Below are positions 15,605 to 33,758 of a stretch of 64,000 nucleotides of DNA, in pieces. Numbering within the stretch: the first letter of the stretch is position 1; every line of letters starts with the position of its first letter. The translations under genes and the position numbers were made by a program. A model generated the notes under the pieces. That model was given only the letters and a program-made list of their open reading frames with translations, was not told the DNA's origin and did not search any database. This DNA comes from Escherichia coli (GTDB lineage: Bacteria > Pseudomonadota > Gammaproteobacteria > Enterobacterales > Enterobacteriaceae), in the NCBI RefSeq assembly GCF_044647545.1, contig NZ_CP172818.1; one strand, given 5' to 3'.

Positions 15605-17635
15605 ATGAAACTCGCCGCCTGTTTTCTGACACTCCTTCCTGGCTTCGCCGTTGCCGCCAGCTGGACTTCTCCGGGGTTTCCCACCTTTAGCGAACAGGGG
15701 ACGGGAACATTTGTCAGCCACGCGCAGTTGCCCAAAGGTACGCGTCCACTAACGCTAAATTTTGACCAACAGTGCTGGCAGCCTGCGGATGCGATAAAAC
15801 TCAATCAGATGCTTTCCCTGCAACCTTGTAGCAACACGCCGCCTCAATGGCGATTGTTCAGGGACGGCGAATATACGCTGCAACTAGACACCCGCTCCGG
15901 TACACCAACATTGATGATTTCCATCCAGAACGCCGTCGAACCGGTAGCAAGCCTGGTCCGTGAATGCCCGAAATGGGATGGATTACCGCTCACACTGGAT
16001 GTCAGCGCCACTTTTCCGGAGGGAGCCGCCGTCCGGGATTATTACAGCCAGCAAATTGCGATAGTGAAGAACGGTCAAATAACGTTACAACCCGCTGCCA
16101 CCAGCAACGGTTTACTCCTGCTGGAACGGGCAGAAACTGACGCCTCTGCCCCTTTCGACTGGCATAACGCCACGGTTTACTTTGTGCTGACAGATCGTTT
16201 CGAAAACGGCGATCCCAGTAATGACCAGAGTTACGGACGTCATAAAGACGGTATGGCAGAAATTGGCACTTTTCACGGCGGCGATTTACGCGGCCTGACC
16301 AACAAACTGGATTACCTCCAGCAGCTGGGCGTCAATGCTTTATGGATAAGTGCCCCATTTGAGCAAATTCACGGCTGGGTCGGCGGCGGTACAAAAGGCG
16401 ATTTCCCGCATTATGCCTACCACGGTTATTACACACAGGACTGGACGAATCTTGATGCCAATATGGGCCGCGAAGCCGATCTACGGACACTGGTTGATAG
16501 CGCGCATCAGCGCGGTATTCGTATTCTCTTTGATGTCGTGATGAACCACACCGGTTATGCCACACTGGCGGATATGCAGGAGTATCAGTTTGGCGCGTTA
16601 TATCTTTCTGGTGACGAGCTGAAAAAAACGTTGGGTGAACGCTGGAGCGACTGGAAACCTGCCGCCGGGCAAACCTGGCATAGCTTTAACGATTACATTA
16701 ATTTCAGCGACAAAACAGGCTGGGATAAATGGTGGGGAAAAAACTGGATCAGAACCGATATCGGCGATTACGACAATCCTGGATTCGACGATCTCACTAT
16801 GTCGCTGGCCTTTTTGCCGGATATCAAAACCGAATCAACGACCGCTTCTGGTCTGCCGGTGTTCTATAAAAACAAAACGGATACCCACGCTAAAGTCATC
16901 GACGGCTTTACCCCTCGCGATTACTTAACCCACTGGTTAAGTCAGTGGGTTCGCGACTATGGGATTGATGGTTTTCGGGTCGACACCGCCAAACATGTTG
17001 AGTTGCCCGCCTGGCAGCAACTGAAAACCGAAGCCAGCGCCGCGCTTCGCGAATGGAAAAAAGCTAACTCCGACAAAGCATTAGATGACAAGCCTTTCTG
17101 GATGACCGGTGAAGCCTGGGGCCACGGCGTGATGCAAAGTGACTACTATCGCCACGGCTTCGATGCGATGATCAATTTCGATTATCAGGAGCAGGCGGCG
17201 AAAGCAGTCGATTGTTTTGCGCAGATGGATACGACCTGGCAGCAAATGGCGGAGAAATTGCAGGATTTCAACGTGTTGAGCTACCTCTCGTCGCATGATA
17301 CCCGCCTGTTCCGCGAAGGTGGTAATAAAGCAGCAGAGTTATTGTTATTAGCGCCAGGCGCGGTACAAATCTTTTATGGTGATGAATCCTCGCGTCCGTT
17401 CGGCCCCACCGGTTCGGATCCACTGCAAGGCACGCGTTCGGATATGAACTGGCAGGATGTTAGCGGCAAATCTGCCGCCAGCGTCGCGCACTGGCAGAAA
17501 ATCAGCCAGTTCCGCGCCCGCCATCCCGCAATTGGCGAGGGCAAACAAACGACACTTTCGCTGAAGCAGGGCTACGGCTTTGTTCGTGAGCATGGCGACG
17601 ATAAAGTGCTGGTCATCTGGGCTGGGCAACAGTGA
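15605..17635 (+). CDS. malS: Periplasmic alpha-amylase
   Basis: 676-aa ORF with signal peptide and glycoside hydrolase family 13 motifs (GIRILFDVVMNH, GFRVDTAKH). Confidence 0.95.
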   Translation: MKLAACFLTLLPGFAVAASWTSPGFPTFSEQGTGTFVSHAQLPKGTRPLTLNFDQQCWQPADAIKLNQMLSLQPCSNTPPQWRLFRDGEYTLQLDTRSGTPTLMISIQNAVEPVASLVRECPKWDGLPLTLDVSATFPEGAAVRDYYSQQIAIVKNGQITLQPAATSNGLLLLERAETDASAPFDWHNATVYFVLTDRFENGDPSNDQSYGRHKDGMAEIGTFHGGDLRGLTNKLDYLQQLGVNALWISAPFEQIHGWVGGGTKGDFPHYAYHGYYTQDWTNLDANMGREADLRTLVDSAHQRGIRILFDVVMNHTGYATLADMQEYQFGALYLSGDELKKTLGERWSDWKPAAGQTWHSFNDYINFSDKTGWDKWWGKNWIRTDIGDYDNPGFDDLTMSLAFLPDIKTESTTASGLPVFYKNKTDTHAKVIDGFTPRDYLTHWLSQWVRDYGIDGFRVDTAKHVELPAWQQLKTEASAALREWKKANSDKALDDKPFWMTGEAWGHGVMQSDYYRHGFDAMINFDYQEQAAKAVDCFAQMDTTWQQMAEKLQDFNVLSYLSSHDTRLFREGGNKAAELLLLAPGAVQIFYGDESSRPFGPTGSDPLQGTRSDMNWQDVSGKSAASVAHWQKISQFRARHPAIGEGKQTTLSLKQGYGFVREHGDDKVLVIWAGQQ

Positions 17636-17812
17636 CTTTTCCGGCTTCCCGTTCGTCAGTACCTCGGGAAGCCGCCAACCAGGATAAAATGTCAGCTCTA
17701 ATCAGCGTTGCAGGATAAAGCACTGCTCCCTCTTCAACAGAGCGATTTGCACCCCAGCAAATGTAGCGTTATTGTTACCTTCCTTGCTACAGAGTTCGAC
17801 AGATATCCCGCT

Positions 17813-19066
17813 ATGACATTCTCCCTTTTTGGTGACAAATTTACCCGCCACTCCGGCATTACGCTGCTGATGGAAGATCTGAACGACGGTTTACGCACGC
17901 CTGGCGCGATTATGCTCGGCGGCGGTAATCCAGCGCAGATCCCGGAAATGCAAGACTACTTCCAGACGCTACTGACCGACATGCTGGAAAGTGGCAAAGC
18001 GACTGATGCACTGTGCAATTACGACGGTCCACAGGGGAAAACGGAGCTACTCACACTGCTTGCCGGAATGCTGCGCGAGAAGTTGGGTTGGGATATCGAA
18101 CCACAGAATATTGCACTAACAAACGGCAGCCAGAGCGCGTTTTTCTACTTATTTAATCTGTTTGCCGGACGCCGTGCCGATGGTCGGGTCAAAAAAGTGC
18201 TGTTCCCGCTGGCACCTGAATATATTGGCTACGCTGACGCCGGACTGGAAGAAGATCTGTTTGTCTCTGCGCGTCCGAATATTGAACTGCTGCCGGAAGG
18301 CCAGTTTAAATACCACGTCGATTTTGAGCATCTGCATATTGGCGAAGAAACCGGGATGATTTGCGTCTCCCGGCCGACGAATCCAACAGGCAATGTGATT
18401 ACTGACGAAGAGTTGCTGAAGCTTGACGCGCTGGCGAATCAACACGGCATTCCGCTGGTGATTGATAACGCTTATGGCGTCCCGTTCCCGGGTATCATCT
18501 TCAGCGAAGCGCGCCCGCTGTGGAATCCGAATATTGTACTGTGCATGAGTCTTTCCAAGCTGGGACTACCGGGTTCGCGCTGCGGCATTATCATCGCCAA
18601 TGAAAAAATCATCACCGCAATCACCAACATGAACGGCATTATCAGCCTGGCGCCTGGCGGTATTGGTCCGGCGATAATGTGTGAAATGATTAAGCGTAAC
18701 GATCTGCTGCGCCTGTCTGAAACGGTTATCAAACCGTTTTATTACCAGCGTGTTCAGGAAACTATCGCCATCATTCGCCGCTATTTACCGGAAGATCGCT
18801 GCCTGATTCATAAACCGGAAGGAGCCATTTTCCTCTGGCTATGGTTTAAGGATTTGCCAATTACGACCGAGCAGCTCTACCAGCGCCTGAAAGCACGGGG
18901 CGTGCTGATGGTGCCGGGGCACAACTTCTTCCCAGGGCTGGATAAACCGTGGCCACATACACATCAATGTATGCGCATGAACTACGTGCCGGAGCCGGAT
19001 AAAATTGAGGCGGGGGTGAAGATTCTGGCGGAAGAGATAGAAAGAGCCTGGGCTGAAAGCCATTAA
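17813..19066 (+). CDS. avtA: Valine--pyruvate aminotransferase
   Basis: ORF 17708..19066; start set at MTFSLFGDKFTRHSGI giving 417 aa; aminotransferase class I fold. Confidence 0.9.
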   Translation: MTFSLFGDKFTRHSGITLLMEDLNDGLRTPGAIMLGGGNPAQIPEMQDYFQTLLTDMLESGKATDALCNYDGPQGKTELLTLLAGMLREKLGWDIEPQNIALTNGSQSAFFYLFNLFAGRRADGRVKKVLFPLAPEYIGYADAGLEEDLFVSARPNIELLPEGQFKYHVDFEHLHIGEETGMICVSRPTNPTGNVITDEELLKLDALANQHGIPLVIDNAYGVPFPGIIFSEARPLWNPNIVLCMSLSKLGLPGSRCGIIIANEKIITAITNMNGIISLAPGGIGPAIMCEMIKRNDLLRLSETVIKPFYYQRVQETIAIIRRYLPEDRCLIHKPEGAIFLWLWFKDLPITTEQLYQRLKARGVLMVPGHNFFPGLDKPWPHTHQCMRMNYVPEPDKIEAGVKILAEEIERAWAESH

Positions 19067-19679: not shown

Positions 19680-20528
19680 TTATGTGATCGCGCCCTGGTC
19701 GTCCCTGACAGTAAATCCCAGTTCATTAGAAATAGCCTGCGCGGTTTCACGCAGTGGTTTCAGGAGATTTTTCTCCCCCACCTGTTTCAGACGTGATGTC
19801 GAAAGCGAAATCGACACGGCGTACGGCACCCGCCCATGAATATCAAACACCGGAACAGCAATACAGGAGACGCCGAGTTCGTTTTCTTCTCTGTCCATCG
19901 CCGCTCCGCTTTCACGAATGTGCGCCAGTTCGTCGAACATCGCGGGCAGCTCGGTAATGGTATTGCGGGTTAACGGCTGGATCTCATGCTGATGGCTTTC
20001 CCAGTATGACTTCACGTAGTCCGGGTGACCAAACGCCATGTAGATCTTGCCCATTGCGGAACAGTAGAGCGGCATATGCTGGCCAATATAGGCACGGGTT
20101 CGCAGCATCCCGGTTGTGGGTTCCAGCTTATAAATCAAAATAGCGTGATCGTCTTCGCGGCTGGAGAAGTTAATAGTTTCACCAGTGGCGATGTTCAGTG
20201 CCTCAAGATGCGGAGCGGCGATATGAATGATATTCAGCGAAGACAGCGCCTTCTGCCCGACGGCAATAAATTTGGTGGTCAGGCGGTAACTCCCTGCGGC
20301 GGGCGCGGTGGTCACATAGCCGCAGGATTGTAATCCCTGCAATAAGCGATGGACGGTACTCTTATTTAAACCAGCCAGTTCCGAAAGATGCGCCAACGGA
20401 CAACCGTTTGGATAGTTGCTCAAAATCTCAATCAGCATCAACCCGCGAAACAGACTCTGGCTTCCGGCTGGACGCTCTTTTTCCTGCGCCATCTCGTTCT
20501 CTTTTTTTCCCATCACTTCTTTCCCCAT
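19680..20528 (-). CDS. yiaJ: IclR-family transcriptional repressor of the yiaK-sgbE operon
   Basis: 282-aa ORF with IclR-type HTH; divergent from yiaK. Confidence 0.9.
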   Translation of the reverse strand: MGKEVMGKKENEMAQEKERPAGSQSLFRGLMLIEILSNYPNGCPLAHLSELAGLNKSTVHRLLQGLQSCGYVTTAPAAGSYRLTTKFIAVGQKALSSLNIIHIAAPHLEALNIATGETINFSSREDDHAILIYKLEPTTGMLRTRAYIGQHMPLYCSAMGKIYMAFGHPDYVKSYWESHQHEIQPLTRNTITELPAMFDELAHIRESGAAMDREENELGVSCIAVPVFDIHGRVPYAVSISLSTSRLKQVGEKNLLKPLRETAQAISNELGFTVRDDQGAIT

Positions 20529-20728
20529 TTTGTCGCGTCCTGATGGTAGCGCAAAGTGTGCCGTAGTTCACGATCTCGACAGATAATTTATAACCACTTG
20601 ATTCTTAAGTTTTTTGAAATTCGTCAATCCGATTGCTTTGTTAAAAAGTGATCGATATATTTGAAATCAAGTTTCGCATATTGAAATTTTAAGCCAAAAA
20701 AGCGATCAAAAAAACAAGGAAACCTGGG

Positions 20729-21727
20729 ATGAAAGTGACATTTGAGCAGTTAAAAGCAGCCTTTAATCGGGTCTTAATTTCACGCGGCGTTGACAGCGAA
20801 ACGGCTGACGCCTGTGCAGAGATGTTCGCCCGCACCACCGAATCCGGCGTTTATTCTCACGGCGTTAATCGTTTCCCTCGTTTCATTCAACAACTGGAAA
20901 ACGGCGATATCATTCCTGATGCCCAACCCAAACGTATAACCAGCCTCGGCGCAATTGAACAGTGGGACGCTCAGCGTTCGATCGGTAACCTGACAGCGAA
21001 AAAGATGATGGATCGCGCCATTGAACTGGCTGCCGATCACGGTATTGGTCTGGTGGCACTACGTAATGCCAACCACTGGATGCGCGGCGGCAGCTACGGC
21101 TGGCAGGCGGCGGAAAAAGGCTATATTGGCATTTGCTGGACCAACTCCATCGCCGTAATGCCGCCGTGGGGCGCAAAAGAGTGTCGCATCGGCACCAACC
21201 CGCTGATCGTCGCCATTCCTTCTACCCCAATCACCATGGTCGATATGTCGATGTCGATGTTCTCTTACGGCATGTTAGAAGTTAACCGTCTGGCAGGCCG
21301 TCAGCTCCCGGTCGATGGTGGCTTTGATGATGAGGGCAATTTGACCAAAGAACCTGGCGTTATCGAGAAGAATCGCCGCATTTTGCCGATGGGCTACTGG
21401 AAAGGTTCTGGCATGTCGATTGTGCTGGATATGATCGCCACTCTCCTTTCCGACGGCGCATCGGTTGCCGAAGTCACCCAGGACAACAGCGACGAATACG
21501 GCGTTTCGCAAATCTTTATCGCCATCGAAGTGGATAAATTGATCGACGGCCCCACCCGCGATGCCAAGCTGCAACGCATCATGGATTACGTTACTACCGC
21601 TGAACGCGCTGACGAAAACCAGGCCATCCGCTTACCCGGCCACGAATTTACTACCCTGCTGGCCGAAAACCGCCGTAACGGCATCACTGTTGATGACAGC
21701 GTGTGGGCCAAAATCCAGGCGTTATGA
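20729..21727 (+). CDS. yiaK: 2,3-diketo-L-gulonate reductase
   Basis: 332-aa ORF, first gene of the operon. Confidence 0.92.
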
Positions 21728-21735
21728 GGAGATAA

Positions 21736-22206
<471 letters not shown>

Positions 22207-22323
22207 TCGAATAATCGTCTACGCCAGAACGCCTGGGTAATGTTATTGCTCTAACTATATTAATAATTTAGGTTGCTGCACATGCAACTTGAATTATGAC
22301 AGACATAGCCTCAAGGAATAGCT

Positions 22324-22797
22324 ATGAAAAAAATACTTGAAGCAATACTGGCGATTAATCTCGCCGTACTTTCCTGTATTGTGTTTATAAACATTATTTT
22401 AAGATATGGTTTTCAGACAAGCATTTTATCTGTAGATGAATTGTCACGTTATTTATTTGTCTGGTTAACATTTATTGGCGCGATTGTGGCTTTTATGGAT
22501 AACGCCCACGTTCAGGTCACCTTTCTGGTGGAGAAACTCTCCCCCGCATGGCAGCGACGAGTCGCTCTGGTTACCCATTCCTTAATCTTATTTATTTGTG
22601 GCGCACTGGCCTGGGGCGCAACGCTAAAAACAATTCAGGACTGGAGCGATTATTCACCGATCCTCGGTTTGCCCATCGGCCTGATGTATGCCGCTTGTCT
22701 GCCCACCAGCCTCGTTATCGCATTCTTTGAACTGCGTCATTTATATCAACTCATCACGCGTAGCAATTCTCTAACGTCGCCACCGCAAGGAGCTTAA
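22324..22797 (+). CDS. yiaM: TRAP transporter small permease (2,3-diketo-L-gulonate)
   Basis: 157-aa four-helix membrane ORF directly upstream of the large permease. Confidence 0.9.
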
Positions 22798-22799
22798 TC

Positions 22800-24077
22800 A
22801 TGGCTGTGCTGATTTTTCTGGGCTGTCTGTTGGGTGGTATTGCTATCGGTTTGCCTATTGCCTGGGCACTGTTGTTGTGCGGGGCGGCGTTAATGTTCTG
22901 GCTGGGCATGTTTGATGTCCAGATCATGGCACAAACGCTGGTGAACGGAGCCGACAGCTTCTCCCTGCTGGCGATTCCGTTCTTTGTGCTGGCGGGTGAA
23001 ATCATGAATGCGGGCGGCTTGTCAAAACGCATTGTTGACCTGCCGATGAAACTGGTGGGGCATAAACCAGGCGGGCTGGGCTACGTCGGCGTGCTGGCGG
23101 CTATGATTATGGCGAGCCTTTCTGGTTCTGCTGTTGCGGATACCGCCGCCGTTGCCGCGCTATTAGTGCCGATGATGCGCAGCGCTAACTACCCGGTCAA
23201 CCGTGCTGCGGGGCTGATTGCCTCTGGCGGCATTATCGCGCCAATTATTCCCCCTTCCATTCCGTTTATTATCTTCGGCGTTTCCAGCGGATTATCCATC
23301 AGCAAGCTGTTTATGGCGGGTGTTGCCCCAGGCATTATGATGGGCGCAACGCTGATGCTCACATGGTGGTGGCAGGCCAGTCGTCTTAATTTACCCCGTC
23401 AGCAAAAAGCAACGAAACGAGAAATCTGGCACTCTTTTGTTTCCGGTATCTGGGCGCTATTTCTTCCGGTCATTATTATTGGCGGCTTTCGCTCCGGTCT
23501 GTTTACCCCTACCGAAGCCGGGGCCGTTGCTGCTTTCTATGCGCTGTTTGTCGCCACAGTTATTTACCGTGAAATGACCTTCGCCACACTTTGGCATGTA
23601 CTCATTGGCGCGGCGAAAACCACCTCAGTGGTAATGTTTCTGGTGGCCTCGGCACAAGTTTCTGCCTGGCTGATTACCATTGCTGAACTGCCGATGATGG
23701 TTTCTGATTTACTGCAACCGTTGGTCGATTCACCGCGTCTGCTGTTTATCGTTATTATGCTGGCTATCCTGATTGTCGGCATGGTCATGGATTTAACGCC
23801 GACGGTGTTAATTCTTACTCCGGTATTAATGCCTTTAGTTAAAGAGGCAGGAATCGATCCGATTTATTTCGGTGTCATGTTTATCATTAACTGCTCAATC
23901 GGCTTAATTACACCGCCTATCGGTAATGTGCTTAACGTTATTTCAGGGGTGGCAAAACTCAAATTCGATGATGCAGTCAGAGGCGTTTTCCCTTACGTCC
24001 TGGTTTTATATTCATTATTAGTCGTATTTGTTTTTATTCCCGATCTCATCATCCTCCCTTTGAAATGGATTAATTAA
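22800..24077 (+). CDS. yiaN: TRAP transporter large permease
   Basis: 425-aa polytopic membrane ORF; 2-bp spacer after yiaM. Confidence 0.92.
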   Translation: MAVLIFLGCLLGGIAIGLPIAWALLLCGAALMFWLGMFDVQIMAQTLVNGADSFSLLAIPFFVLAGEIMNAGGLSKRIVDLPMKLVGHKPGGLGYVGVLAAMIMASLSGSAVADTAAVAALLVPMMRSANYPVNRAAGLIASGGIIAPIIPPSIPFIIFGVSSGLSISKLFMAGVAPGIMMGATLMLTWWWQASRLNLPRQQKATKREIWHSFVSGIWALFLPVIIIGGFRSGLFTPTEAGAVAAFYALFVATVIYREMTFATLWHVLIGAAKTTSVVMFLVASAQVSAWLITIAELPMMVSDLLQPLVDSPRLLFIVIMLAILIVGMVMDLTPTVLILTPVLMPLVKEAGIDPIYFGVMFIINCSIGLITPPIGNVLNVISGVAKLKFDDAVRGVFPYVLVLYSLLVVFVFIPDLIILPLKWIN

Positions 24078-24089
24078 AAGGAAAATATT

Positions 24090-25076
24090 ATGAAATTACG
24101 CTCTGTAACCTACGCATTATTCATTGCTGGCCTGGCTGCATTTAGTACATCTTCAATGGCGGCGCAATCTTTACGTTTCGGTTATGAAACCTCACAAACC
24201 GACTCGCAACATATTGCGGCGAAAAAATTCAATGATTTATTGCAGGAGAGAACCAAAGGCGAGCTGAAATTAAAACTGTTCCCGGACAGCACTCTCGGTA
24301 ACGCGCAGGCGATGATCAGCGGCGTACGTGGCGGCACCATCGATATGGAAATGTCCGGCTCGAATAACTTTGCCGGGTTATCACCAGTGATGAACTTGCT
24401 TGATGTCCCTTTCCTGTTCCGCGATACCGCTCACGCGCATAAAACGCTCGACGGCAAAGTCGGTGATGATCTGAAAGCCTCACTTGAAGGTAAAGGACTG
24501 AAAGTACTGGCCTACTGGGAAAACGGCTGGCGCGATGTCACCAACTCGCGCGCACCGGTTAAAACCCCCGCCGACCTGAAAGGGCTGAAAATCCGCACCA
24601 ACAATAGTCCGATGAATATCGCAGCATTCAAAGTCTTTGGCGCTAACCCGATCCCGATGCCGTTTGCCGAAGTCTATACCGGGCTGGAAACGCGCACTAT
24701 CGACGCTCAGGAACACCCGATCAACGTCGTCTGGTCAGCAAAATTTTTCGAAGTACAGAAGTACCTTTCTCTGACGCACCACGCCTATTCGCCACTTTTG
24801 GTGGTGATCAACAAAGCGAAGTTTGATGGCTTAAGCCCGGAATTCCAGCAGGCGCTGATCTCATCTGCGCAGGAAGCGGGTAACTACCAGCGCAAACTGG
24901 TTGCCGAAGATCAGCAAAAAATCATCGACGGCATGAAAGAAGCGGGCGTGGAAGTCATCACCGATCTCGACCGCAAAGCCTTTAGCGACGCACTGGGGAA
25001 TCAGGTTCGCGACATGTTTGTTAAAGATGTGCCGCAGGGAGCTGATCTGCTGAAAGCCGTGGATGAGGTGCAATAA
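24090..25076 (+). CDS. yiaO: TRAP transporter periplasmic solute-binding protein
   Basis: 328-aa ORF with signal peptide. Confidence 0.92.
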   Translation: MKLRSVTYALFIAGLAAFSTSSMAAQSLRFGYETSQTDSQHIAAKKFNDLLQERTKGELKLKLFPDSTLGNAQAMISGVRGGTIDMEMSGSNNFAGLSPVMNLLDVPFLFRDTAHAHKTLDGKVGDDLKASLEGKGLKVLAYWENGWRDVTNSRAPVKTPADLKGLKIRTNNSPMNIAAFKVFGANPIPMPFAEVYTGLETRTIDAQEHPINVVWSAKFFEVQKYLSLTHHAYSPLLVVINKAKFDGLSPEFQQALISSAQEAGNYQRKLVAEDQQKIIDGMKEAGVEVITDLDRKAFSDALGNQVRDMFVKDVPQGADLLKAVDEVQ

Positions 25077-25079
25077 ACC

Positions 25080-26576
25080 ATGACGCAATACTGGCTGGGG
25101 TTAGATTGTGGCGGTAGCTGGCTGAAAGCCGGGCTGTATGACCGCGAAGGCCGGGAGGCAGGCGTGCAGCGCCTGCCGCTGTGCGCATTAAGCCCGCAGC
25201 CAGGTTGGGCAGAGCGCGATATGGCAGAACTGTGGCAATGCTGCATGGCTATCATTCGCACCCTGCTTACTCATTCTGGTGTCAGCGGGGAACAAATTGT
25301 CGGTATCGGCATCTCCGCACAGGGAAAGGGCTTGTTTTTGCTGGATAAAAACGACAAGCCGCTCGGTAACGCCATTTTGTCCTCGGATCGCCGGGCGATG
25401 GAAATCGTTCGTCGCTGGCAGGAAGATGGCATCCCGGAAAAACTCTACCCGCTGACCCGACAAACCTTGTGGACCGGGCATCCGGTGTCGCTGTTACGCT
25501 GGCTGAAAGAGCACAAACCAGAACGCTACGCGCAAATTGGCTGCGTGATGATGACGCACGACTACCTGCGCTGGTGTTTAACCGGCGTCAAAGGTTGCGA
25601 AGAGAGCAATATTTCCGAGTCCAATCTCTACAACATGAGTCTTGAGGAATATGACCCGTGCCTCACCGACTGGCTGGGGATCGCTGAAATCAACCACGCC
25701 CTGCCGCCTGTTGTCGGATCTGCCGAAATCTGCGGGGAAATCACCGCTCAGACAGCCGCACTGACCGGTCTGAAAGCGGGTACGCCCATTGTCGGCGGCC
25801 TGTTTGATGTGGTTTCCACCGCACTCTGTGCCGGGATCGAAGACGAATTTACCCTTAATGCGGTGATGGGCACCTGGGCGGTGACCAGCGGCATAACCCG
25901 TGGTTTACGTGACGGTGAAGCGCATCCGTATGTCTATGGTCGCTACGTTAACGATGGTCAATTTATCGTTCACGAAGCCAGCCCCACCTCTTCCGGCAAC
26001 CTCGAATGGTTTACCGCACAGTGGGGAGAAATCTCGTTTGATGAGATTAACCAGGCCGTTGCCAGCTTGCCAAAGGCCGGGGGCGATCTCTTTTTCCTGC
26101 CGTTCCTGTACGGCAGCAACGCCGGACTCGAGATGACCAGCGGTTTCTACGGGATGCAGGCCATTCACACCCGCGCACACCTGTTGCAGGCCATTTATGA
26201 AGGCGTGGTGTTCAGCCATATGACCCATCTCAACCGGATGCGCGAACGTTTTACTGATGTGCACACCCTGCGCGTCACTGGCGGCCCGGCGCACTCCGAT
26301 GTCTGGATGCAAATGCTGGCGGACGTCAGCGGGCTGCGTATCGAACTGCCGCAGGTGGAAGAAACCGGCTGCTTTGGTGCGGCACTTGCCGCCCGCGTCG
26401 GCACCGGAGTTTATCGCGATTTCAGCGAAGCCCAACGTGATTTACAGCACCCGGTACGCACCCTGCAGCCGGATATGACCGCACATCAGCTTTACCAACA
26501 AAAATACCAACGTTATCAGCATCTCATTGCCGCACTTCAGGGCTTTCACGCCCGCATCAAGGAGCACACATTATGA
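25080..26576 (+). CDS. lyxK: L-xylulose/3-keto-L-gulonate kinase
   Basis: 498-aa FGGY-family kinase. Confidence 0.93.
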   Translation: MTQYWLGLDCGGSWLKAGLYDREGREAGVQRLPLCALSPQPGWAERDMAELWQCCMAIIRTLLTHSGVSGEQIVGIGISAQGKGLFLLDKNDKPLGNAILSSDRRAMEIVRRWQEDGIPEKLYPLTRQTLWTGHPVSLLRWLKEHKPERYAQIGCVMMTHDYLRWCLTGVKGCEESNISESNLYNMSLEEYDPCLTDWLGIAEINHALPPVVGSAEICGEITAQTAALTGLKAGTPIVGGLFDVVSTALCAGIEDEFTLNAVMGTWAVTSGITRGLRDGEAHPYVYGRYVNDGQFIVHEASPTSSGNLEWFTAQWGEISFDEINQAVASLPKAGGDLFFLPFLYGSNAGLEMTSGFYGMQAIHTRAHLLQAIYEGVVFSHMTHLNRMRERFTDVHTLRVTGGPAHSDVWMQMLADVSGLRIELPQVEETGCFGAALAARVGTGVYRDFSEAQRDLQHPVRTLQPDMTAHQLYQQKYQRYQHLIAALQGFHARIKEHTL

Positions 26577-27235
26577 GCCGACCACTTCTGCAACTGGCCC
26601 TCGACCACTCATCACTTGAAGACGCACAGCGCGACGTGACGCTGTTAAAAGACAGCGTCGATATCGTCGAAGCGGGCACCATTCTCTGCTTAAACGAAGG
26701 GCTTGGCGCAGTGAAAGCCTTGCGCGAACAGTGCCCGAACAAAATCATCGTCGCTGACTGGAAGGTCGCCGACGCGGGTGAAACGCTCGCGCAACAGGCG
26801 TTTGGCGCAGGCGCTAACTGGATGACCATCATCTGCGCCGCACCGCTCGCGACGGTGGAAAAAGGCCACGCGATGGCGCAACGCTGCGGTGGTGAAATTC
26901 AGATCGAGTTGTTCGGTAACTGGACGCTGGACGACGCCCGCGACTGGCATCGTATTGGCGTGCGGCAGGCCATTTATCATCGCGGTCGCGACGCGCAGGC
27001 CAGCGGGCAACAGTGGGGGGAGGCCGATCTGGCACGCATGAAGGCGCTTTCCGATATCGGCCTTGAGCTTTCCATTACCGGCGGTATTACTCCTGCTGAT
27101 CTGCCACTGTTTAAAGATATCCGCGTAAAGGCGTTTATTGCCGGACGGGCGCTGGCAGGCGCGGCAAATCCGGTGCAGGTGGCTGGCGATTTCCATGCAC
27201 AAATTGATGCCATCTGGGGAGGTGCGCGTGCGTAA
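26573..27235 (+). CDS. sgbH: 3-keto-L-gulonate-6-phosphate decarboxylase
   Basis: 220-aa ORF; ATGA start/stop overlap with lyxK. Confidence 0.93.
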
Positions 27236-28088
27236 TCATCCGTTAGGGATTTATGAAAAAGCGCTGGCGAAAGATCTCTCCTGGCCGGAGCGGCTGGTGC
27301 TGGCAAAAAGCTGTGGCTTTGATTTTGTCGAAATGTCGGTGGATGAAACCGACGAACGGCTCTCACGTCTTGACTGGAGCGCCGCACAACGTGCTTCGCT
27401 GGTCACTGCGATGATCGAAACGGGTGTTGCCATTCCGTCAATGTGCCTGTCTGCCCATCGTCGTTTTCCCTTTGGCAGCCGGGACGAGGCAGTGCGCGAA
27501 CGGGCGCGGGAAATCATGAGTAAAGCGATTCGCCTGGCGCGCGATCTCGGCATTCGCACCATCCAGCTGGCAGGTTATGACGTCTATTACGAAGACCACG
27601 ACGAAGGCACCCAACAACGTTTTGCTGAAGGGCTGGCGTGGGCAGTCGAACAGGCGGCGGCATCACAAGTCATGCTGGCGGTGGAGATTATGGATACCGC
27701 GTTTATGAACTCCATCAGCAAATGGAAAAAATGGGACGAGATGCTCGCCTCGCCGTGGTTCACCGTCTACCCGGACGTCGGCAACCTCAGCGCCTGGGGC
27801 AATGATGTTCCCGCCGAACTGAAACTGGGCATTGACCGTATCGCCGCGATCCACCTGAAAGACACCCTGCCAGTCACCGGGCAAAGCCCCGGACAGTTCC
27901 GTGATGTGCCGTTTGGCGAAGGCTGCGTCGATTTCGTTGGCATCTTCAAAACGCTGCATGAACTGAACTATCGCGGATCATTTCTGATTGAGATGTGGAC
28001 CGAAAAAGCCAAAGAGCCGGTGCTGGAGATTATTCAGGCGCGGCGCTGGATTGAAGCGCGTATGCAGGAGGCCGGATTTATATGTTAG
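27228..28088 (+). CDS. sgbU: L-xylulose-5-phosphate 3-epimerase
   Basis: ORF 27138..28088; start set at GTG 27228 giving [13 protein letters not shown]..., 286 aa; overlaps sgbH by 8 nt. Confidence 0.9.
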
Positions 28089-28777
28089 AGCAACTAAAAG
28101 CCGACGTGCTGGCGGCGAATCTGGCGCTTCCCGTTCATCATCTGGTGACGTTCACCTGGGGCAATGTCAGCGCGGTAGACGAAACGCGGCAATGGATGGT
28201 AATCAAACCTTCCGGCGTCGAGTACAACGTGATGACCGCCGACGATATGGTAGTGGTTGAGATAGCCACCGGTAAGGTGGTGGAAGGCAGAAAAAAACCC
28301 TCGTCCGACACGCCAACGCATCTGGCGCTTTACCGTCGCTATGCCGAAATTGGCGGTATTGTGCATACCCACTCGCGCCACGCCACCATCTGGTCGCAGG
28401 CCGGGCTGGATCTCCCCGCCTGGGGCACCACGCACGCTGATTACTTCTATGGTGCCATCCCCTGCACGCGACAGATGACCGCAGAGGAGATCAACGGCGA
28501 GTATGAATACCAGACCGGCGAAGTGATCATTAAAACCTTCGAAGAACGTGGGTTGAACCCGGCACAAATCCCGGCTGTACTGGTGCATTCTCACGGCCCG
28601 TTCGCCTGGGGAAAAAACGCCGCCGATGCGGTGCATAACGCCGTGGTGCTGGAAGAGTGCGCCTATATGGGCCTGTTCTCGCGCCAGCTTGCACCGCAGC
28701 TCCCTGCGATGCAAAACGAACTGCTGGATAAGCACTACCTGCGTAAACATGGGGCCAATGCCTATTACGGGCAGTAA
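28082..28777 (+). CDS. sgbE: L-ribulose-5-phosphate 4-epimerase
   Basis: 231-aa class II aldolase/epimerase ORF; 7-nt overlap with sgbU. Confidence 0.93.
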
Positions 28778-28807
28778 TCCCTCACGCCGGGGCTTCATTG
28801 CCCCGGC

Positions 28808-28915
28808 ACTACGAATTGATATGTTCCTTGCTGTAACGTCGCTTCCACGCAGCTGGCGTTAAGCCGGTGTGTTTGCGAAAAATCTGCCGGAAATAGCCGA
28901 CGTCATTAAACCGTA
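28808..28915 (-). pseudogene. AraC/XylS-family regulator C-terminal remnant (HTH fragment, frame interrupted upstream)
   Basis: Minus-strand translation ...LAVVGLFQAIRFNDVGYFRQIFRKHTGLTPAAWKRRYSKEHINS* fits the AraC C-terminal HTH pattern; an in-frame TGA lies just upstream. Confidence 0.35.
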
Positions 28916-29123
28916 TTGCCTGGAACAGGCCGACAACGGCGAGTCACTGCATAACCTGTGGCTGCCCGCCGATGCGCCATTTACGACATTTGAAGGTAAT
29001 GGATTGTTCCGCCATAAGATCTTAATCCAGGCACCGGGTTACCGGTATGAACAGAGCAATCCAGAGCAGCAACCGCTGTGGCATTACGACAGTGCGCCAG
29101 CCGCACCGACATCCACCGGTGAA

Positions 29124-29864
29124 TTAAAAACGCCAGCTCACCCCGGTGACAAAGGTAAAACTCTCATTACGATCAATCATCGGGCTGTCGGTAATCTCTT
29201 CCGGCAGCTCGCTGTATCCTGCGCTCGCCATCAATACGACGTGCTCTCCTATCGGGTATTTTGCCGTCAGGCTGACATAGGGCACCCAGGCATCCTGCGC
29301 GGAATAACTTGCCAGACCGCTACGACGGGACTCACTCTCTGAAATGCCATAGTAATAGTCACTGAAATTCTCGTCATAATAGAGAACGCCCAGCGCAGGT
29401 GTCAGCGACAGACGACCTATCTGCATTTTGTGGAATACCGATAGCTCCCCCACCCAGCCGTTGCTGTTATCCAGAACGTCCGCAGCTGCAGAGGCTTTCA
29501 CGGTTCCCCAACGCTCGTGGTGATACCAGGCAACCCCCGCCATAGCCGTACTATCACGCTTATCAAGCTGTTGCATGGCATAATCGTCATTATCGGTAGG
29601 GTCAAATTCCAGCGGCATCCAGGATGCGGTCAGGCTAAGTTCATTTTTTTCACTTTGCGACAGAATAAAACCTAACGTGGTCTGACGAACATAAAAAGTA
29701 TCACCTTCATAACTAATCAGCGGAATTGCCTTCGTATTTTCATTATAACCGCGATAAGGCGATTCATTATAAGCCGCACCAGCACCAATGGATAATTCAG
29801 AAGCAGTTGCGCTTGCCATAAAAGGCAACGCAAATAACGCCACAATATTGCGATTAATTAACAT
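29124..29864 (-). CDS. yiaT: Outer membrane protein (MipA/OmpV family)
   Basis: 246-aa ORF with signal peptide, beta-strand-like alternation and C-terminal F. Confidence 0.88.
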   Translation of the reverse strand: MLINRNIVALFALPFMASATASELSIGAGAAYNESPYRGYNENTKAIPLISYEGDTFYVRQTTLGFILSQSEKNELSLTASWMPLEFDPTDNDDYAMQQLDKRDSTAMAGVAWYHHERWGTVKASAAADVLDNSNGWVGELSVFHKMQIGRLSLTPALGVLYYDENFSDYYYGISESESRRSGLASYSAQDAWVPYVSLTAKYPIGEHVVLMASAGYSELPEEITDSPMIDRNESFTFVTGVSWRF

Positions 29865-29987
29865 GTCCGGTATTCCATTTTAAAATAAGATAAAAAAGAG
29901 TCGGCATAATAATGCTTACAATTTCTCCGGTGCAAGATTCATATTTATATAGTAATATATAAAATTATATATAATTGGGCTGTTGCG

Positions 29988-30962
29988 ATGACAAAATTAC
30001 AACTTAAGTACCGGGAGTTAAAAATTATCTCGGTAATCGCTGCCAGTGAAAATATCAGCCATGCCGCGACTGTACTTGGCATCGCACAGGCCAACGTCAG
30101 CAAATATCTTGCTGATTTTGAATCAAAAGTGGGTTTAAAAGTCTTTGACCGAACCACCCGGCAGCTGATGCTCACACCTTTTGGCACCGCGCTGTTACCG
30201 TACATCAACGACATGCTGGACAGAAACGAGCAACTTAATAATTTTATTGCAGATTATAAGCATGAGAAACGTGGTCGGGTCACCATCTACGCCCCAACCG
30301 GCATAATTACCTATTTATCCAAACATGTAATCGATAAAATTAAAGATATCGGTGATATCACCTTATCGCTAAAAACCTGCAATCTTGAGCGTAATGCCTT
30401 TTATGAAGGCGTCGAATTTCCTGATGATTGTGATGTTTTAATCAGCTACGCTCCACCAAAAGATGAATCGCTGGTTGCCAGTTTTATTACCCAATATGCC
30501 GTAACCGCTTATGCCAGCCAGCGCTATCTTGAGAAACATCCCATTAGCCGTCCTGACGAACTCGAACATCACTCCTGTATTTTGATCGACTCGATGATGA
30601 TCGACGACGCGAATATCTGGCGCTTCAACGTCGCCGGGAGTAAAGAGGTGCGGGATTATCGCGTGAAGGGAAATTACGTTTGCGACAACACGCAATCTGC
30701 GCTGGAGCTGGCACGAAATCACCTGGGGATTGTGTTTGCGCCAGACAAAAGTGTGCAGAGCGACCTGCAAGACGGCACGCTGGTGCCCTGCTTTCAGCAA
30801 CCCTATGAATGGTGGCTGGATCTGGTGGCTATCTTCCGTAAACGGGAATACCAGCCCTGGCGGGTCCAGTATGTGCTGGATGAAATGCTGCGTGAAATTC
30901 GCCACCAGCTTGCTCAGTCGCAGCAACTGCGGCCTGAACAAGCGGCGGAAAGCGAAGATTAA
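29988..30962 (+). CDS. yiaU: LysR-family transcriptional regulator
   Basis: 324-aa ORF with N-terminal LysR HTH; divergent-convergent with yiaT/yiaV. Confidence 0.9.
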
Positions 30963-32095
30963 TGATCGAGATAAAGGTAATGCACCCAGCTGGTCATGCG
31001 TAATAGCACTTTGCGCATCACCGAGACATGGCTGAAATGATCAGAGTAAACCGCCACCTGGGCGTAAATACCGTCTGGTAAAGCGCTCAAATCAGTGTGC
31101 TCATCCAGTTCAATGGTCGCGATAACGCCATCTGAACCCGGCGCTGTGTTTAACGTCTGTAAGGTGCCGGTCGACTGATAAGCTCCGCCGGGAACGGCTG
31201 GACTAATGGCTGCCAGCTTACCGCTGAATACCTTACCTGGCAGAGCATTAAACACCACTTCCGCATCGTCGCCAGGAGCCAGTCGCAGCAAGGAGTTCTG
31301 ACGGAACTGCGCCACGATTTGTCGTTTCTGATCGGGTATAAACACCATCACCGGACGTAGCGGCAGCGACGCGGCATAGGTACCCGGACGAATCAGTACC
31401 TGGGTCACATAACCATCGCTCGGCGCACGCACTATCGTCTGCTCAAGGTTATATTTTGCTTCCGCGAGCTGTGCTTTCAGGCTGGCGATTTGAGAATGTT
31501 CACCCAACACCAGGCTATCCAGCTGGCTCTGGATCTGTTTTTGTTCCGCCGCCGATGACTTCACGGAGGCTTCCTGCGCCAGATAATTTTGCCGCGCCAC
31601 ATCGATATCGCGTTCTGAAAACGGGTTTACTTTCGCCTGGCTGCCACGTGCGTAACGCTGATACTCTTTAGCGAATTTATCCCGCGTGGCCTTTGCCTGC
31701 TGAGTATTCGCCGCCATCTCATCTAACTCTGCGCCCAACGCCCGCTGTTTATGTTCTGCGGTAACGATATCCGCCATCAGCCGATCCACCCGCGCCTGAT
31801 AACGCGTCGGGTCCAGTCGAAATAGCACCTCACCTTTTTTAATCAGCGTATTTTTCTTATCCGTCACTTCAATCACCACACCAGTCACCTGTGGGACAAC
31901 AGGAATAGAAATAACCGCTTTTTGCGCTTTAAAGGTATACGGATGGTTATAGTTCATTAACAGAATTAGACCGCTGACAATAAATATGCCACCCAGGGCC
32001 GCTGTGGGAATGGTCCATTTATTTACAGGAATTTTGAAGATCTTAAACATTGCCCATGCAAAAGCCACATAGGTCAAAATAATCAGTAAATCCAT
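30959..32095 (-). CDS. yiaV: HlyD-family membrane fusion protein
   Basis: 378-aa ORF, N-terminal TM, coiled-coil middle; paralog of yibH. Confidence 0.9.
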
Positions 32096-32100
32096 AAGTA

Positions 32101-32326
32101 TTACTCGGCAGAAGAGGTCTTGATGTCGGCGAGCTGTTTCTCCAGCCCGGCAATACGCTGTTGTAGTTGCACAACGCCGGAGGAGTCATGGTTTTGCATT
32201 CCCCATCCCCGCTCCGGGCGGTAAAGCGTGGCCCAAATCCACAAAATGGCCAGATAACATGCAGCGTAAAAAGACTCACCCAACCAGCAACATGAATGGC
32301 GTCGGCATGAGGATGATTACGTTTTG
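32101..32326 (-). pseudogene. yiaW: yiaW (DUF3302 small membrane protein), C-terminal part, separated from its 5' part by IS1
   Basis: Translation ...[46 protein letters not shown] matches the YibI paralog; reading frame runs into the IS1 left end. Confidence 0.8.
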
Positions 32327-32351
32327 GTGATGCTGCCAACTTACTGATTTA

Positions 32352-32657
32352 GTGTATGATGGTGTTTTTGAGGTGCTCCAGTGGCTTCTGTTTCTATCAG
32401 CTGTCCCTCCTGTTCAGCTACTTGACGGGGTGGTGCGTAACGGCAAAAGCACCGCCGGACATCAGCGTTATCTCTGCTCTCACTGCCGTAAAACATGGCA
32501 ACTGCAGTTCACTTACACCGCTTCTCAACCCGGTACGCACCAGAAAATCATTGATATGGCCATGAATGGCGTTGGATGCCGGGCAACCGCCCGCATTATG
32601 GGCGTTGGCCTCAACGCGATTTTACGTCACTTAAAAAACTCAGGCCGCAGTCGGTAA
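32352..32657 (+). CDS. insA: IS1 InsA-like ORF (body in frame with ...[23 protein letters not shown]...; N-terminus out of frame with the canonical GTG start at 32381)
   Basis: ORF-track translation; canonical-looking start GTG 32381 [14 protein letters not shown] reaches TGA at 32423. Confidence 0.7.
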
Positions 32658-33079
32658 CCTCGCGCATACAGCCGGGCAGTGACGTCATCGTCTGCGCGGA
32701 AATGGACGAACAGTGGGGCTATGTCGGGGCTAAATCGCGCCAGCGCTGGCTGTTTTACGCGTATGACAGGCTCCGGAAGACGGTTGTTGCGCACGTATTC
32801 GGTGAACGCACTATGGCGACGCTGGGGCGTCTTATGAGCCTGCTGTCACCCTTTGACGTGGTGATATGGATGACGGATGGCTGGCCGCTGTATGAATCCC
32901 GCCTGAAGGGAAAGCTGCACGTAATCAGCAAGCGATATACGCAGCGAATTGAGCGGCATAACCTGAATCTGAGGCAGCACCTGGCACGGCTGGGACGGAA
33001 GTCGCTGTCGTTCTCAAAATCGGTGGAGCTGCATGACAAAGTCATCGGGCATTATCTGAACATAAAACACTATCAATAA
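32576..33079 (+). CDS. insB: IS1 InsB transposase frame
   Basis: 167-aa ORF ...[21 protein letters not shown]...[48 protein letters not shown]. Confidence 0.85.
32631..32641 (+). promoter_or_regulatory. IS1 programmed -1 ribosomal frameshift motif (A6C) joining insA and insB
   Basis: ttaaaaaactc at the insA/insB junction. Confidence 0.6.
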
Positions 33080-33094
33080 GTTGGAGTCATTACC

Positions 33095-33204
33095 TTACGT
33101 TTTTTAGCAATCAGGTAGGGAATATCATGTAAAATAATAATCCCATAGAATATCACCAGAAATACAAAAATAAGCACTCCCAGTGCAAAATAGTCCAGGA
33201 ACAT
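33095..33204 (-). pseudogene. yiaW: yiaW 5' part ([37 protein letters not shown]...), separated from the 3' part by IS1
   Basis: Reverse complement of 33104-33204 encodes the N-terminus homologous to YibI; joining the two parts minus one TSD copy restores a 109-codon frame. Confidence 0.8.
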
Positions 33205-33317
33205 ATTTCCCTCAAAGAATATAAAAAAGAACAATTAACGCATATTATGAAATGCCATGATGCAGTGCAACTTCCTTATTTATATAACGACATATTGTTT
33301 TTTATATACTTTCTGAA

Positions 33318-33530
33318 ATGTGCTGTCTGGTTTTTCAACAGGACGAGGTTTATCATATTGAAATAGTGGAACTATTGGCCAAACTAATGAATAACTCCAG
33401 TAAAACATCCACAGTACAGATTAAGCGTATTAAACCTTCAATTATCTACCGTTTATTGCTGATTGGCCTCGGATCACCAATGGTGATTTACGGCCTGGTT
33501 CGCCCGCTAACCATCGAAACGCGAGATTAA
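33318..33530 (+). CDS. Hypothetical small ORF with a C-terminal hydrophobic segment (possible small membrane protein)
   Basis: 70-aa ORF; internal Met gives a 47-aa peptide MNNSSKTSTVQIKRIKPSIIYRLLLIGLGSPMVIYGLV...; no recognisable homology. Confidence 0.2.
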   Translation: MCCLVFQQDEVYHIEIVELLAKLMNNSSKTSTVQIKRIKPSIIYRLLLIGLGSPMVIYGLVRPLTIETRD

Positions 33531-33638
33531 ACGCCCGGCAATACACGCCGGGCAGCTTCTGCCAGAAACGCACTTCTGTTGGCGTAGTCTGGGTTATTGC
33601 GCACGTAGGTTTAAAACGTAAATTGTAACAACGTGCGC

Positions 33639-33735
33639 TTTGTTTATGCCGGATGCGGCGTGTACCTTATCCGGCCTACGGTCAGGTTCCCGTAGGCATG
33701 ATAAGACGCGTAAGCGTCGCATCAGGCAATGAATA
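33639..33735. repeat. REP elements downstream of aldB
   Basis: gccggatgcggcgtgtaccttatccggcctacgg and gacgcgtaagcgtcgcatcaggc palindromes. Confidence 0.5.
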
Positions 33736-33758
33736 CCCAATGCGACCAGCTTCTTACA

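Follow-up and report, generated by a model that had tools for sequence, protein, structure and literature searches.

The genes lyxK, sgbH, sgbU and sgbE lie end to end in a 64,000-nucleotide stretch of Escherichia coli DNA (the window), each start codon falling inside the preceding gene. Does this packing signal translational coupling across the four genes, and at which codon does sgbU begin? The locus is the 3' half of the yiaK-S operon of E. coli (yiaKLMNO-lyxK-sgbH-sgbU-sgbE). Positions 3741076-3754327 of K-12 MG1655 were collinear with the window at 97.3% identity, and the gene order yiaK-L-M-N-O-lyxK-sgbH-sgbU-sgbE, with the adjoining divergent plaR/yiaJ, was that of an orthologous yiaK-S locus. 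The K-12 operon (b3575-b3583) resembled the window in its genes, their order, the overlap spacings of -4, -8 and -7 and the GTG start of sgbU. At 94.4-98.7% nucleotide identity per gene, and with a few amino-acid differences, the window carries only an allelic variant of it. The allele is a rare one, found at 99% identity or more in only 60 of 4856 genomes.

The yiaK-S genes have been described as a single operon under PlaR/YiaJ repression (PMC6958661, PMC6237786). A scan for internal promoters or terminators dividing lyxK-sgbH-sgbU-sgbE gave counts inside the shuffle expectation, and an Rfam scan of positions 20000-30000 for known RNA elements returned a single sub-threshold chance match. The products of the four genes would be successive enzymes leading from 3-keto-L-gulonate or L-xylulose to D-xylulose-5-phosphate. 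SgbU matched TIGR00542 over the whole profile (1-279 of 279) with 518.7 bits for a cut-off of 272.15, and SgbE matched both NF009002 (508.7 bits for a cut-off of 386, full length) and TIGR00760 (440.7 for 389.1). For LyxK, general FGGY-kinase models alone gave matches, all of them below the equivalog cut-offs (the best was XylB TIGR01312, 256.3 against 380.25); its probable identity rests on 97.8% amino-acid identity to K-12 LyxK and on synteny with K-12 lyxK.

The original prediction had described overlaps of 4, 8 and 7 nt at the three junctions, and these proved exact to the base in the sequence, the list of open reading frames, the RefSeq PGAP annotation and the curated K-12 MG1655 record (Table 1). 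A RefSeq genome of 100% identity (PGAP) and K-12 MG1655 (b3580-b3583) are annotated with these same coordinates, which recurred in five more E. coli genomes of 92.6-95.5% identity. The end-to-start overlaps are real and already recorded in reference annotation, and they are an ordinary trait of compact bacterial operons. Their commonness was judged by published distributions: in most groups of prokaryotes, roughly 15% of gene pairs overlap in the same direction (PMC6728339), and the enriched spacings are precisely -4, -1 and -8 (PMC12548453). Overlaps being common and the spacings enriched, the pattern is therefore statistically unremarkable.

Table 1. Features of the lyxK-sgbH-sgbU-sgbE segment, in positions of the window (SD, Shine-Dalgarno sequence)
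Feature	Position	Strand	Details
lyxK (yiaP), L-xylulose/3-keto-L-gulonate kinase, 498 aa	25080-26576	+	ORF; RefSeq and K-12 annotation
SD of sgbH, AAGGAG	26559-26564	+	within lyxK 3' end, 8 nt ahead of ATG; anti-SD duplex -7.7 kcal/mol
lyxK/sgbH overlap, ATGA	26573-26576	+	spacing -4; lyxK TGA 26574-26576 over sgbH ATG 26573-26575
sgbH CDS	26573-27235	+	NF009831, 449.1 bits vs cut-off 294, profile 1-220 of 220; RefSeq and K-12 annotation
In-frame upstream sgbU extension (TTG 27138, ATG 27195, TTG 27204, ATG 27207, GTG 27222)	27138-27227	+	other frame is the SgbH C-terminus
SD of sgbU, GGGGAGGTG	27216-27224	+	core GGAGG 27218-27222; -12.6 kcal/mol; ends 5 nt before GTG
sgbH/sgbU overlap, GTGCGTAA	27228-27235	+	spacing -8; sgbH TAA 27233-27235 over in-frame GTG 27228
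sgbU (yiaR), L-xylulose-5-phosphate / L-ribulose-5-phosphate 3-epimerase, 286 aa, GTG start	27228-28088	+	TIGR00542; annotation
SD of sgbE, AGGAGG	28066-28071	+	within sgbU 3' end, 10 nt ahead of ATG; duplex -10.3 kcal/mol
sgbU/sgbE overlap, ATGTTAG	28082-28088	+	spacing -7; sgbU TAG 28086-28088 over sgbE ATG 28082
sgbE (yiaS), L-ribulose-5-phosphate 4-epimerase, 231 aa	28082-28777	+	NF009002; RefSeq and K-12 annotation

The middle overlap depends on the start of sgbU. The mechanical open reading frame begins at TTG 27138, in frame 90 nt upstream of GTG 27228, and would encode 316 aa compared to the 286 aa of the annotated protein. The GTG had been predicted as the true start, and the family profiles, the UlaE structure, the Shine-Dalgarno pairing, the homologous ATG codons and the PGAP and K-12 annotations all agreed with it. 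The alignments of NCBIfam TIGR00542 and NF009689 began at residue 32 of the extended frame, directly after the residue encoded by GTG 27228, and that of the UlaE structure PDB 3cqh (E=3.5e-107) also started from residue 32. The duplex ahead of this codon was the strongest of the operon; it is encoded by Trp-Gly-Gly codons at the SgbH C-terminus, and the tggggag motif at the sgbU start was conserved in essentially all of 80 species. The codon homologous to GTG 27228 was ATG in 75 of these species and GTG in the other five, and the 286-aa SgbU was present on at least 1000 contigs in a collection spanning some 15 billion sequences. The analysis upholds the reference start (GTG, 286 aa).

The segment from 27138 to 27227 is judged not to be translated as part of SgbU, in agreement with the prediction that this extension is probably not used. 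Production of SgbU wholly or partly in an N-terminally extended form, from TTG 27138 (316 aa), ATG 27195 (297 aa) or ATG 27207 (293 aa), is very improbable. Although no stop interrupts the frame from 27138 onward in the window strain or in K-12, the pairing ahead of TTG 27138 (-3.7 kcal/mol) was at background level (mean -3.0), and 4 of 10 other Escherichia alleles had an in-frame stop within the extension, downstream of the TTG. The codon ATG 27195 was present in 11 of the 11 Escherichia alleles examined, but its pairing reached -5.9 kcal/mol with an end 12 nt upstream; at ATG 27207, an extra codon of the window that K-12 and most alleles lack, it was +0.3, compared to the -12.6 at GTG 27228. 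Among the Escherichia alleles, 8-15 nucleotide changes in the extension altered 8-12 amino acids in this frame and 1-5 in the sgbH frame, the substitutions being nearly all non-synonymous in the former and mostly synonymous in the latter; the 90 nt evolve as non-coding in the sgbU frame. An upstream in-frame start was absent in 43 of the 80 species, and the extension was left uncovered by every family-profile and structure alignment, the UlaE crystal structure having no counterpart to it. Rare public gene calls do contain the 293-aa form (4 contigs) and the 297-aa form (8 contigs), one of these entries being WP_152931937.1, whereas the 316-aa form was absent from the same 15-billion-sequence collection. 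The extended SgbU from TTG 27138 is close to refuted: the 316-aa frame is a mechanical artefact, and the rare ATG-extended database entries of 293 and 297 aa are artefacts too.

A start only two codons earlier, at GTG 27222, would give 288 aa and a 14-nt overlap, and is even less credible. Both the window and K-12 have this codon in frame, but it is itself overlapped by the Shine-Dalgarno core GGAGG, so that the pairing would end at -1, an unusable spacing. In 7 of 10 other Escherichia alleles the codon at 27222 was GGC or another non-GTG codon, and the 288-aa sequence was absent from the protein collection. Taken one by one, TTG 27138, ATG 27195, TTG 27204, ATG 27207 and GTG 27222 were each ruled out as starts by Shine-Dalgarno strength or spacing and by conservation.

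With the start of sgbU placed at 27228, we propose the following model of expression. The four genes would be translated from a single polycistronic mRNA transcribed at the yiaK promoter, which PlaR/YiaJ represses. They are packed in such a way that each stop codon falls 4-8 nt beyond the next start, and the Shine-Dalgarno sequence of each downstream gene lies inside the coding region before it. A ribosome terminating at a junction would still be no more than a few nucleotides away from the following start codon and its Shine-Dalgarno sequence, and a substantial share of downstream initiation would therefore occur by termination-reinitiation. This would link the output of the four enzymes, and the strong Shine-Dalgarno sequences could add de novo initiation on top of reinitiation. 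The tight translational coupling that had been read into the overlaps is plausible on account of the spacing, but is not in itself visible in the sequence. All three spacings are short enough for reinitiation (PMC12548453, PMC6728339) and fall among the distances over which other E. coli pairs have proved coupled, and, as in known coupled pairs, the 3'-terminal part of the preceding gene contains a Shine-Dalgarno sequence at every junction. With the geometry, the Shine-Dalgarno sequences, the start site and the conserved tight spacing established, we infer a dependence of downstream on upstream translation. We are fairly confident that the locus is best explained as the yiaK-S 3' half with tight overlaps, embedded Shine-Dalgarno sequences, a GTG start at 27228 and probable coupled translation.

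Reinitiation is most efficient at spacings of -4 to +3, and coupling efficiency reportedly falls with overlaps longer than -4 (PMC12548453). Only lyxK/sgbH is in this optimal range; the other two junctions, at -8 and -7, lie beyond -4, an observation that speaks against coupling. A full-text literature search for ribosome-profiling, N-terminomics or translation experiments on these genes found none, and sgbU, sgbH, sgbE and lyxK had no entry in the supplements of the N-terminomics and Ribo-seq studies PMC13245402 and PMC11005335, which is consistent with repression of the operon in standard media.

The comparison of 80 species bears on whether the overlaps have any function. They could be neutral by-products of genome compaction and of start and stop codon turnover, each gene being initiated independently and no functional coupling taking place; we regard this as somewhat unlikely. 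The genome-wide distribution of overlap lengths has been reproduced by neutral simulations (PMC3887535), and the sgbH/sgbU geometry drifts between genera, the spacing being -8 in 21 of 80 species and -4, -1, +1, +2 or +4 in the remainder. In spite of this repeated remodelling, through at least five distinct geometries, the spacing lay outside -8 to +4 in none of the 80 species. The lyxK/sgbH spacing was -4 in 68 of 79 loci, with the AAGGAG of sgbH retained at the majority of loci from the 80 species, and the sgbU/sgbE spacing was -7 in 70 of 78 species, in the form ATG-YTA-G, which demands an otherwise rare NTA leucine codon. The junction pattern is conserved and not accidental. Experiments on native E. 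coli pairs with a spacing of -4 point both ways: coupling was shown for four of the five pairs tested, but the pair bioBF was initiated de novo and uncoupled (PMC6728339).

The strength of the ribosome-binding sites is likewise compatible with neutral overlaps. All three Shine-Dalgarno sequences are strong (Table 1), and the strong site owned by each downstream gene could support independent initiation. Coupling by the unfolding of an RNA that sequesters the ribosome-binding site was considered separately. The 90-nt RNAs around the junctions folded no better than their dinucleotide shuffles (z = +0.89, +0.89 and -0.14), and this mechanism was rejected for local structure. As no junction structure exceeded the shuffled controls, there is therefore no predicted barrier to independent initiation at the strong Shine-Dalgarno sequences.

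Coupled translation by termination-reinitiation, the reading we prefer, can be compared with known systems. In the pairs hyfHI, astDB and menDH, all with a spacing of -4, coupling by termination-reinitiation was established with premature-stop reporters (Huber et al. 2019, PMC6728339). Among the putatively coupled junctions of the window, lyxK/sgbH alone has this spacing, the other two being at -8 and -7. The L-ascorbate operon of E. coli contains in ulaD-ulaE-ulaF a paralogous decarboxylase, 3-epimerase and 4-epimerase in the same order as sgbH-sgbU-sgbE. The N-terminus of UlaE aligned with SgbU from GTG 27228, and the UlaD-terminal WG codons also precede the ulaE start, as at sgbH/sgbU. The two operons differ in their upstream genes, which encode a PTS transporter in ula and a TRAP transporter and a kinase in yiaK-S, and in the start of ulaE, which is ATG. 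Their junctions differ as well: ulaE/ulaF has a spacing of -1 compared to the -7 of sgbU/sgbE, and ulaD/ulaE has a gap of +9 instead of the -8 overlap, the lack of overlap in this paralogous operon being a point against coupling.

The value of these observations is mostly one of annotation hygiene, in that the reference sgbU start is upheld. If the coupling is true, the locus would bring one more example of pathway enzymes, as opposed to a protein complex, to the termination-reinitiation pairs, with the less-studied spacings of -7 and -8; such an addition would be incremental. A more speculative idea, which we consider improbable, is that the junction geometries are tuned, the weak GTG start, unusually strong Shine-Dalgarno sequence and -8 spacing at sgbU in Escherichia and the -7 ATG-YTA-G junction fixing the SgbH:SgbU:SgbE ratio. 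Such a fixed ratio would keep toxic L-pentulose phosphates from building up, and the remodelling of the junction between genera (-8, -4, -1, +1, +2) would then represent lineage-specific retuning. At the sgbU/sgbE junction, the rare leucine codon forced by ATG-YTA-G is codon 2 of sgbE.

The 1.9-kb stretch 26400-28300 was found in 4856 of 5426 complete E. coli genomes and showed 100% identity to E. coli FDAARGOS_497, where PGAP called lyxK, ulaD (corresponding to sgbH), sgbU and araD (corresponding to sgbE) at coordinates which, once converted, were exactly those of the window. The predicted overlaps of 4, 8 and 7 nt matched both the ORF list and the raw sequence to the nucleotide. The curated record of K-12 MG1655 (b3580-b3583: 3747084-3748580, 3748577-3749239, 3749232-3750092 and 3750086-3750781) and five more E. 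coli genomes with 92.6-95.5% identity displayed an identical geometry. All that is structural in the observation is already present in the K-12 reference annotation. The window and K-12 were collinear from ysaA to yiaW (97.3% identity). SgbH, SgbU and SgbE each exceeded the curated cut-off of its NCBIfam family; LyxK matched only generic FGGY-kinase models there, which leaves synteny and 97.8% identity to K-12 as the basis for its name. All four make up the distal part of the yiaKLMNO-lyxK-sgbHUE operon, a PlaR/YiaJ-repressed unit that has been implicated in the catabolism of L-ascorbate, L-lyxose and L-xylulose (PMC6958661, PMC6237786).

Genes, overlaps and candidate sgbU starts, with the Shine-Dalgarno (SD) duplex energy of each start
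Feature	Position	Strand	Length or SD energy	Remark
lyxK	25080-26576	+		ORF list and raw sequence
sgbH	26573-27235	+		ORF list and raw sequence
sgbU	open from TTG 27138, in-frame GTG 27228, end 28088	+		ORF list and raw sequence
sgbE	28082-28777	+		ORF list and raw sequence
lyxK/sgbH overlap	26573-26576	+	4 nt	ATGA
sgbH/sgbU overlap	27228-27235	+	8 nt	GTGCGTAA
sgbU/sgbE overlap	28082-28088	+	7 nt	ATGTTAG
Start TTG	27138		-3.7 kcal/mol
Start ATG	27195		-5.9 kcal/mol	pairing stops 12 nt 5' of ATG
Start TTG	27204		-1.9 kcal/mol
Start ATG	27207		+0.3 kcal/mol
Start GTG	27222		-7.2 kcal/mol	SD abuts codon
Start GTG	27228		-12.6 kcal/mol	SD GGGGAGGTG, ending 5 nt 5' of start; strongest of the operon

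Six independent lines place the sgbU start at GTG 27228, as originally predicted, and this call, taken together with the anatomy of the locus, is very nearly certain. The TIGR00542 and NF009689 profiles start at residue 32 of the 316-aa ORF opened by TTG 27138, the first residue past the GTG codon. The alignment with the crystal-structure sequence of the UlaE paralogue (3cqh) begins at the same residue, and the native UlaE N-terminus aligns with that of SgbU translated from GTG 27228. The duplex of the 16S anti-SD with the 20 nt 5' of each candidate start was scored against a baseline of mean -3.0 kcal/mol (n = 180 NTG triplets of the region). Among 80 species-level loci found with the SgbU protein as query, the homologous codon was ATG in 75 and GTG in five (Escherichia and one unclassified Enterobacteriaceae isolate). 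The preceding in-frame stop lay at most 90 nt 5' of this codon in 32 of the 80 loci, and in 43 there was no in-frame NTG between the two. Ten further alleles from Escherichia carried 8-15 nt differences in the 90 nt 5' of the GTG. Read in the extension frame, these gave 8-12 aa differences, a stop among them in four alleles, but only 1-5 in the sgbH frame; the first 90 nt 3' carried 1-4 nt differences and, in the sgbU frame, 0-1 aa differences. The coding signal in the sgbU frame therefore begins at 27228. In an exact-sequence look-up the 286-aa SgbU starting there occurred on at least 1000 contigs, and the 316-aa and 288-aa forms were absent; both reference annotations (PGAP and K-12) use this start. 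The SD energy of TTG 27138, the stops and the missing 316-aa form bear out the view that the extension is probably unused. A literature search and the supplements checked yielded no direct N-terminal or initiation-profiling evidence for SgbU.

ATG-extended calls at 27195-27227, of 293 aa (WP_152931937.1; 4 contigs) and 297 aa (8 contigs), exist in public databases for exactly the allele of the window. These rare calls probably arise from gene callers favouring ATG over GTG; the evidence on the start site indicates that the entries are mis-annotations. The GTG start (27228-27230) was seen in every Escherichia locus examined (E. coli, E. albertii and E. whittamii), and looks like a lineage-specific change from ATG, with an extended SD GGGGAGG alongside.

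The overlap pattern as such is ordinary. In most prokaryotic groups, about 15% of gene pairs overlap co-directionally (PMC6728339), 4-nt overlaps make up about 45% of the unidirectional ones (PMC3887535), and the three spacings that are enriched are -4, -1 and -8 (PMC12548453; negative values are overlaps). By start and stop codon logic, 8 nt is the minimum overlap possible in the relative frame of sgbH and sgbU. The existence of the overlaps is within chance; what lies beyond chance is the conservation of their tightness across genera. The lyxK/sgbH spacing was -4 in 68 of 79 species and that of sgbU/sgbE was -7 in 70 of 78 (-4 in seven, -16 in one). The -7 junction read ATG-YTA-G in almost all loci, so that the sgbU stop depends on an NTA leucine as sgbE codon 2. 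The sgbH/sgbU spacing took six values in the 80 species (-8 in 21, -4 in 6, -1 in 14, +1 in 14, +2 in 24 and +4 in one), and this junction was therefore repeatedly remodelled, though always inside a 12-nt range. Codons of the conserved Ile/Leu-Trp-Gly with which the decarboxylase ends supply the SD-like tggggag, which was near-invariant. The K-12 ula paralogues differ, with spacings of +9 and -1 as compared to -8 and -7 here.

The best-supported account is that of one polycistronic mRNA carrying the four genes, with reinitiation at the junctions. Terminating ribosomes would be released 4-8 nt from the next start codon, directly over the next SD, which would favour reinitiation and hence proportional synthesis of four consecutive enzymes. 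This would keep L-ribulose-5-phosphate and L-xylulose-5-phosphate from accumulating, a rationale based on the arabinose-sensitive araD mutants. On balance, we lean towards a meaningful share of downstream translation being coupled. Strict coupling is argued against by the three SDs, all strong enough for de novo initiation, and by reviews, which report a steeper loss of coupling with a growing overlap than with a growing gap (PMC12548453). Furthermore, local RNA folding at the three junctions was no better than in shuffled controls (z = +0.89, +0.89 and -0.14), so that nothing predicted suppresses independent initiation, the condition proposed for strict coupling in E. coli by Huber et al., who found one of five native -4 pairs uncoupled (PMC6728339).

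Within E. coli, alleles of the whole yiaK-S operon (20729-28777) diverge to an unusual depth. Identity over 26400-28300 reached at least 99% in only 60 genomes and was just 90-95% in 2339; over yiaN-yiaO (22800-24700) it was just 80-90% in 1054. The flanking malS-avtA control (16000-17900) was at 95-99% in 5256 of 5423 genomes and lower in a single one. The sgb segment was missing from about 570 E. coli genomes. This pattern points to a dispensable operon with old haplotypes or with recombination between species. The low dN as compared to dS (sgbH has 94.7% nt and 98.6% aa identity to K-12) indicates that purifying selection still acts on the genes.

A GC-rich hairpin (28786-28807, GCCGGGGC-TTCATT-GCCCCGGC) was visible 9 nt past the sgbE stop, with a z of -2.62 against shuffles for the 81-nt fold. 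As neither strand has a T-run after it, the hairpin does not qualify as a canonical intrinsic terminator; it may instead stabilise the 3' end, or be what remains of a terminator shared with the convergent AraC-family pseudogene. Its sub-threshold Rfam match to CRISPR-DR16 was judged to be chance. Window positions 20000-30000 matched no Rfam family, and counts of promoter-like and terminator-like sites were inside shuffle expectation.

Between sgbE and aldB (28778-33755) lies a hotspot of variable gene content, where the window has the K-12-like order, an AraC-gene remnant followed by yiaT, yiaU, yiaV and yiaW. Identity between FDAARGOS_497 and the window is 100% as far as 28912 and resumes in aldB; in between, FDAARGOS_497 carries instead an intact AraC-family regulator, an MFS transporter, a GH127 glycosidase, HicAB and a type I restriction gene. 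In UPEC 536 sgbE is directly followed by aldB, and in strain 7_33_80A a deletion runs from mid-sgbH into yiaT. A second match to the K-12 yiaV-yiaW segment (about 69% identity) lies at 50744-52252, presumably a paralogous pair of an HlyD-family membrane-fusion gene and a DUF3302 gene.
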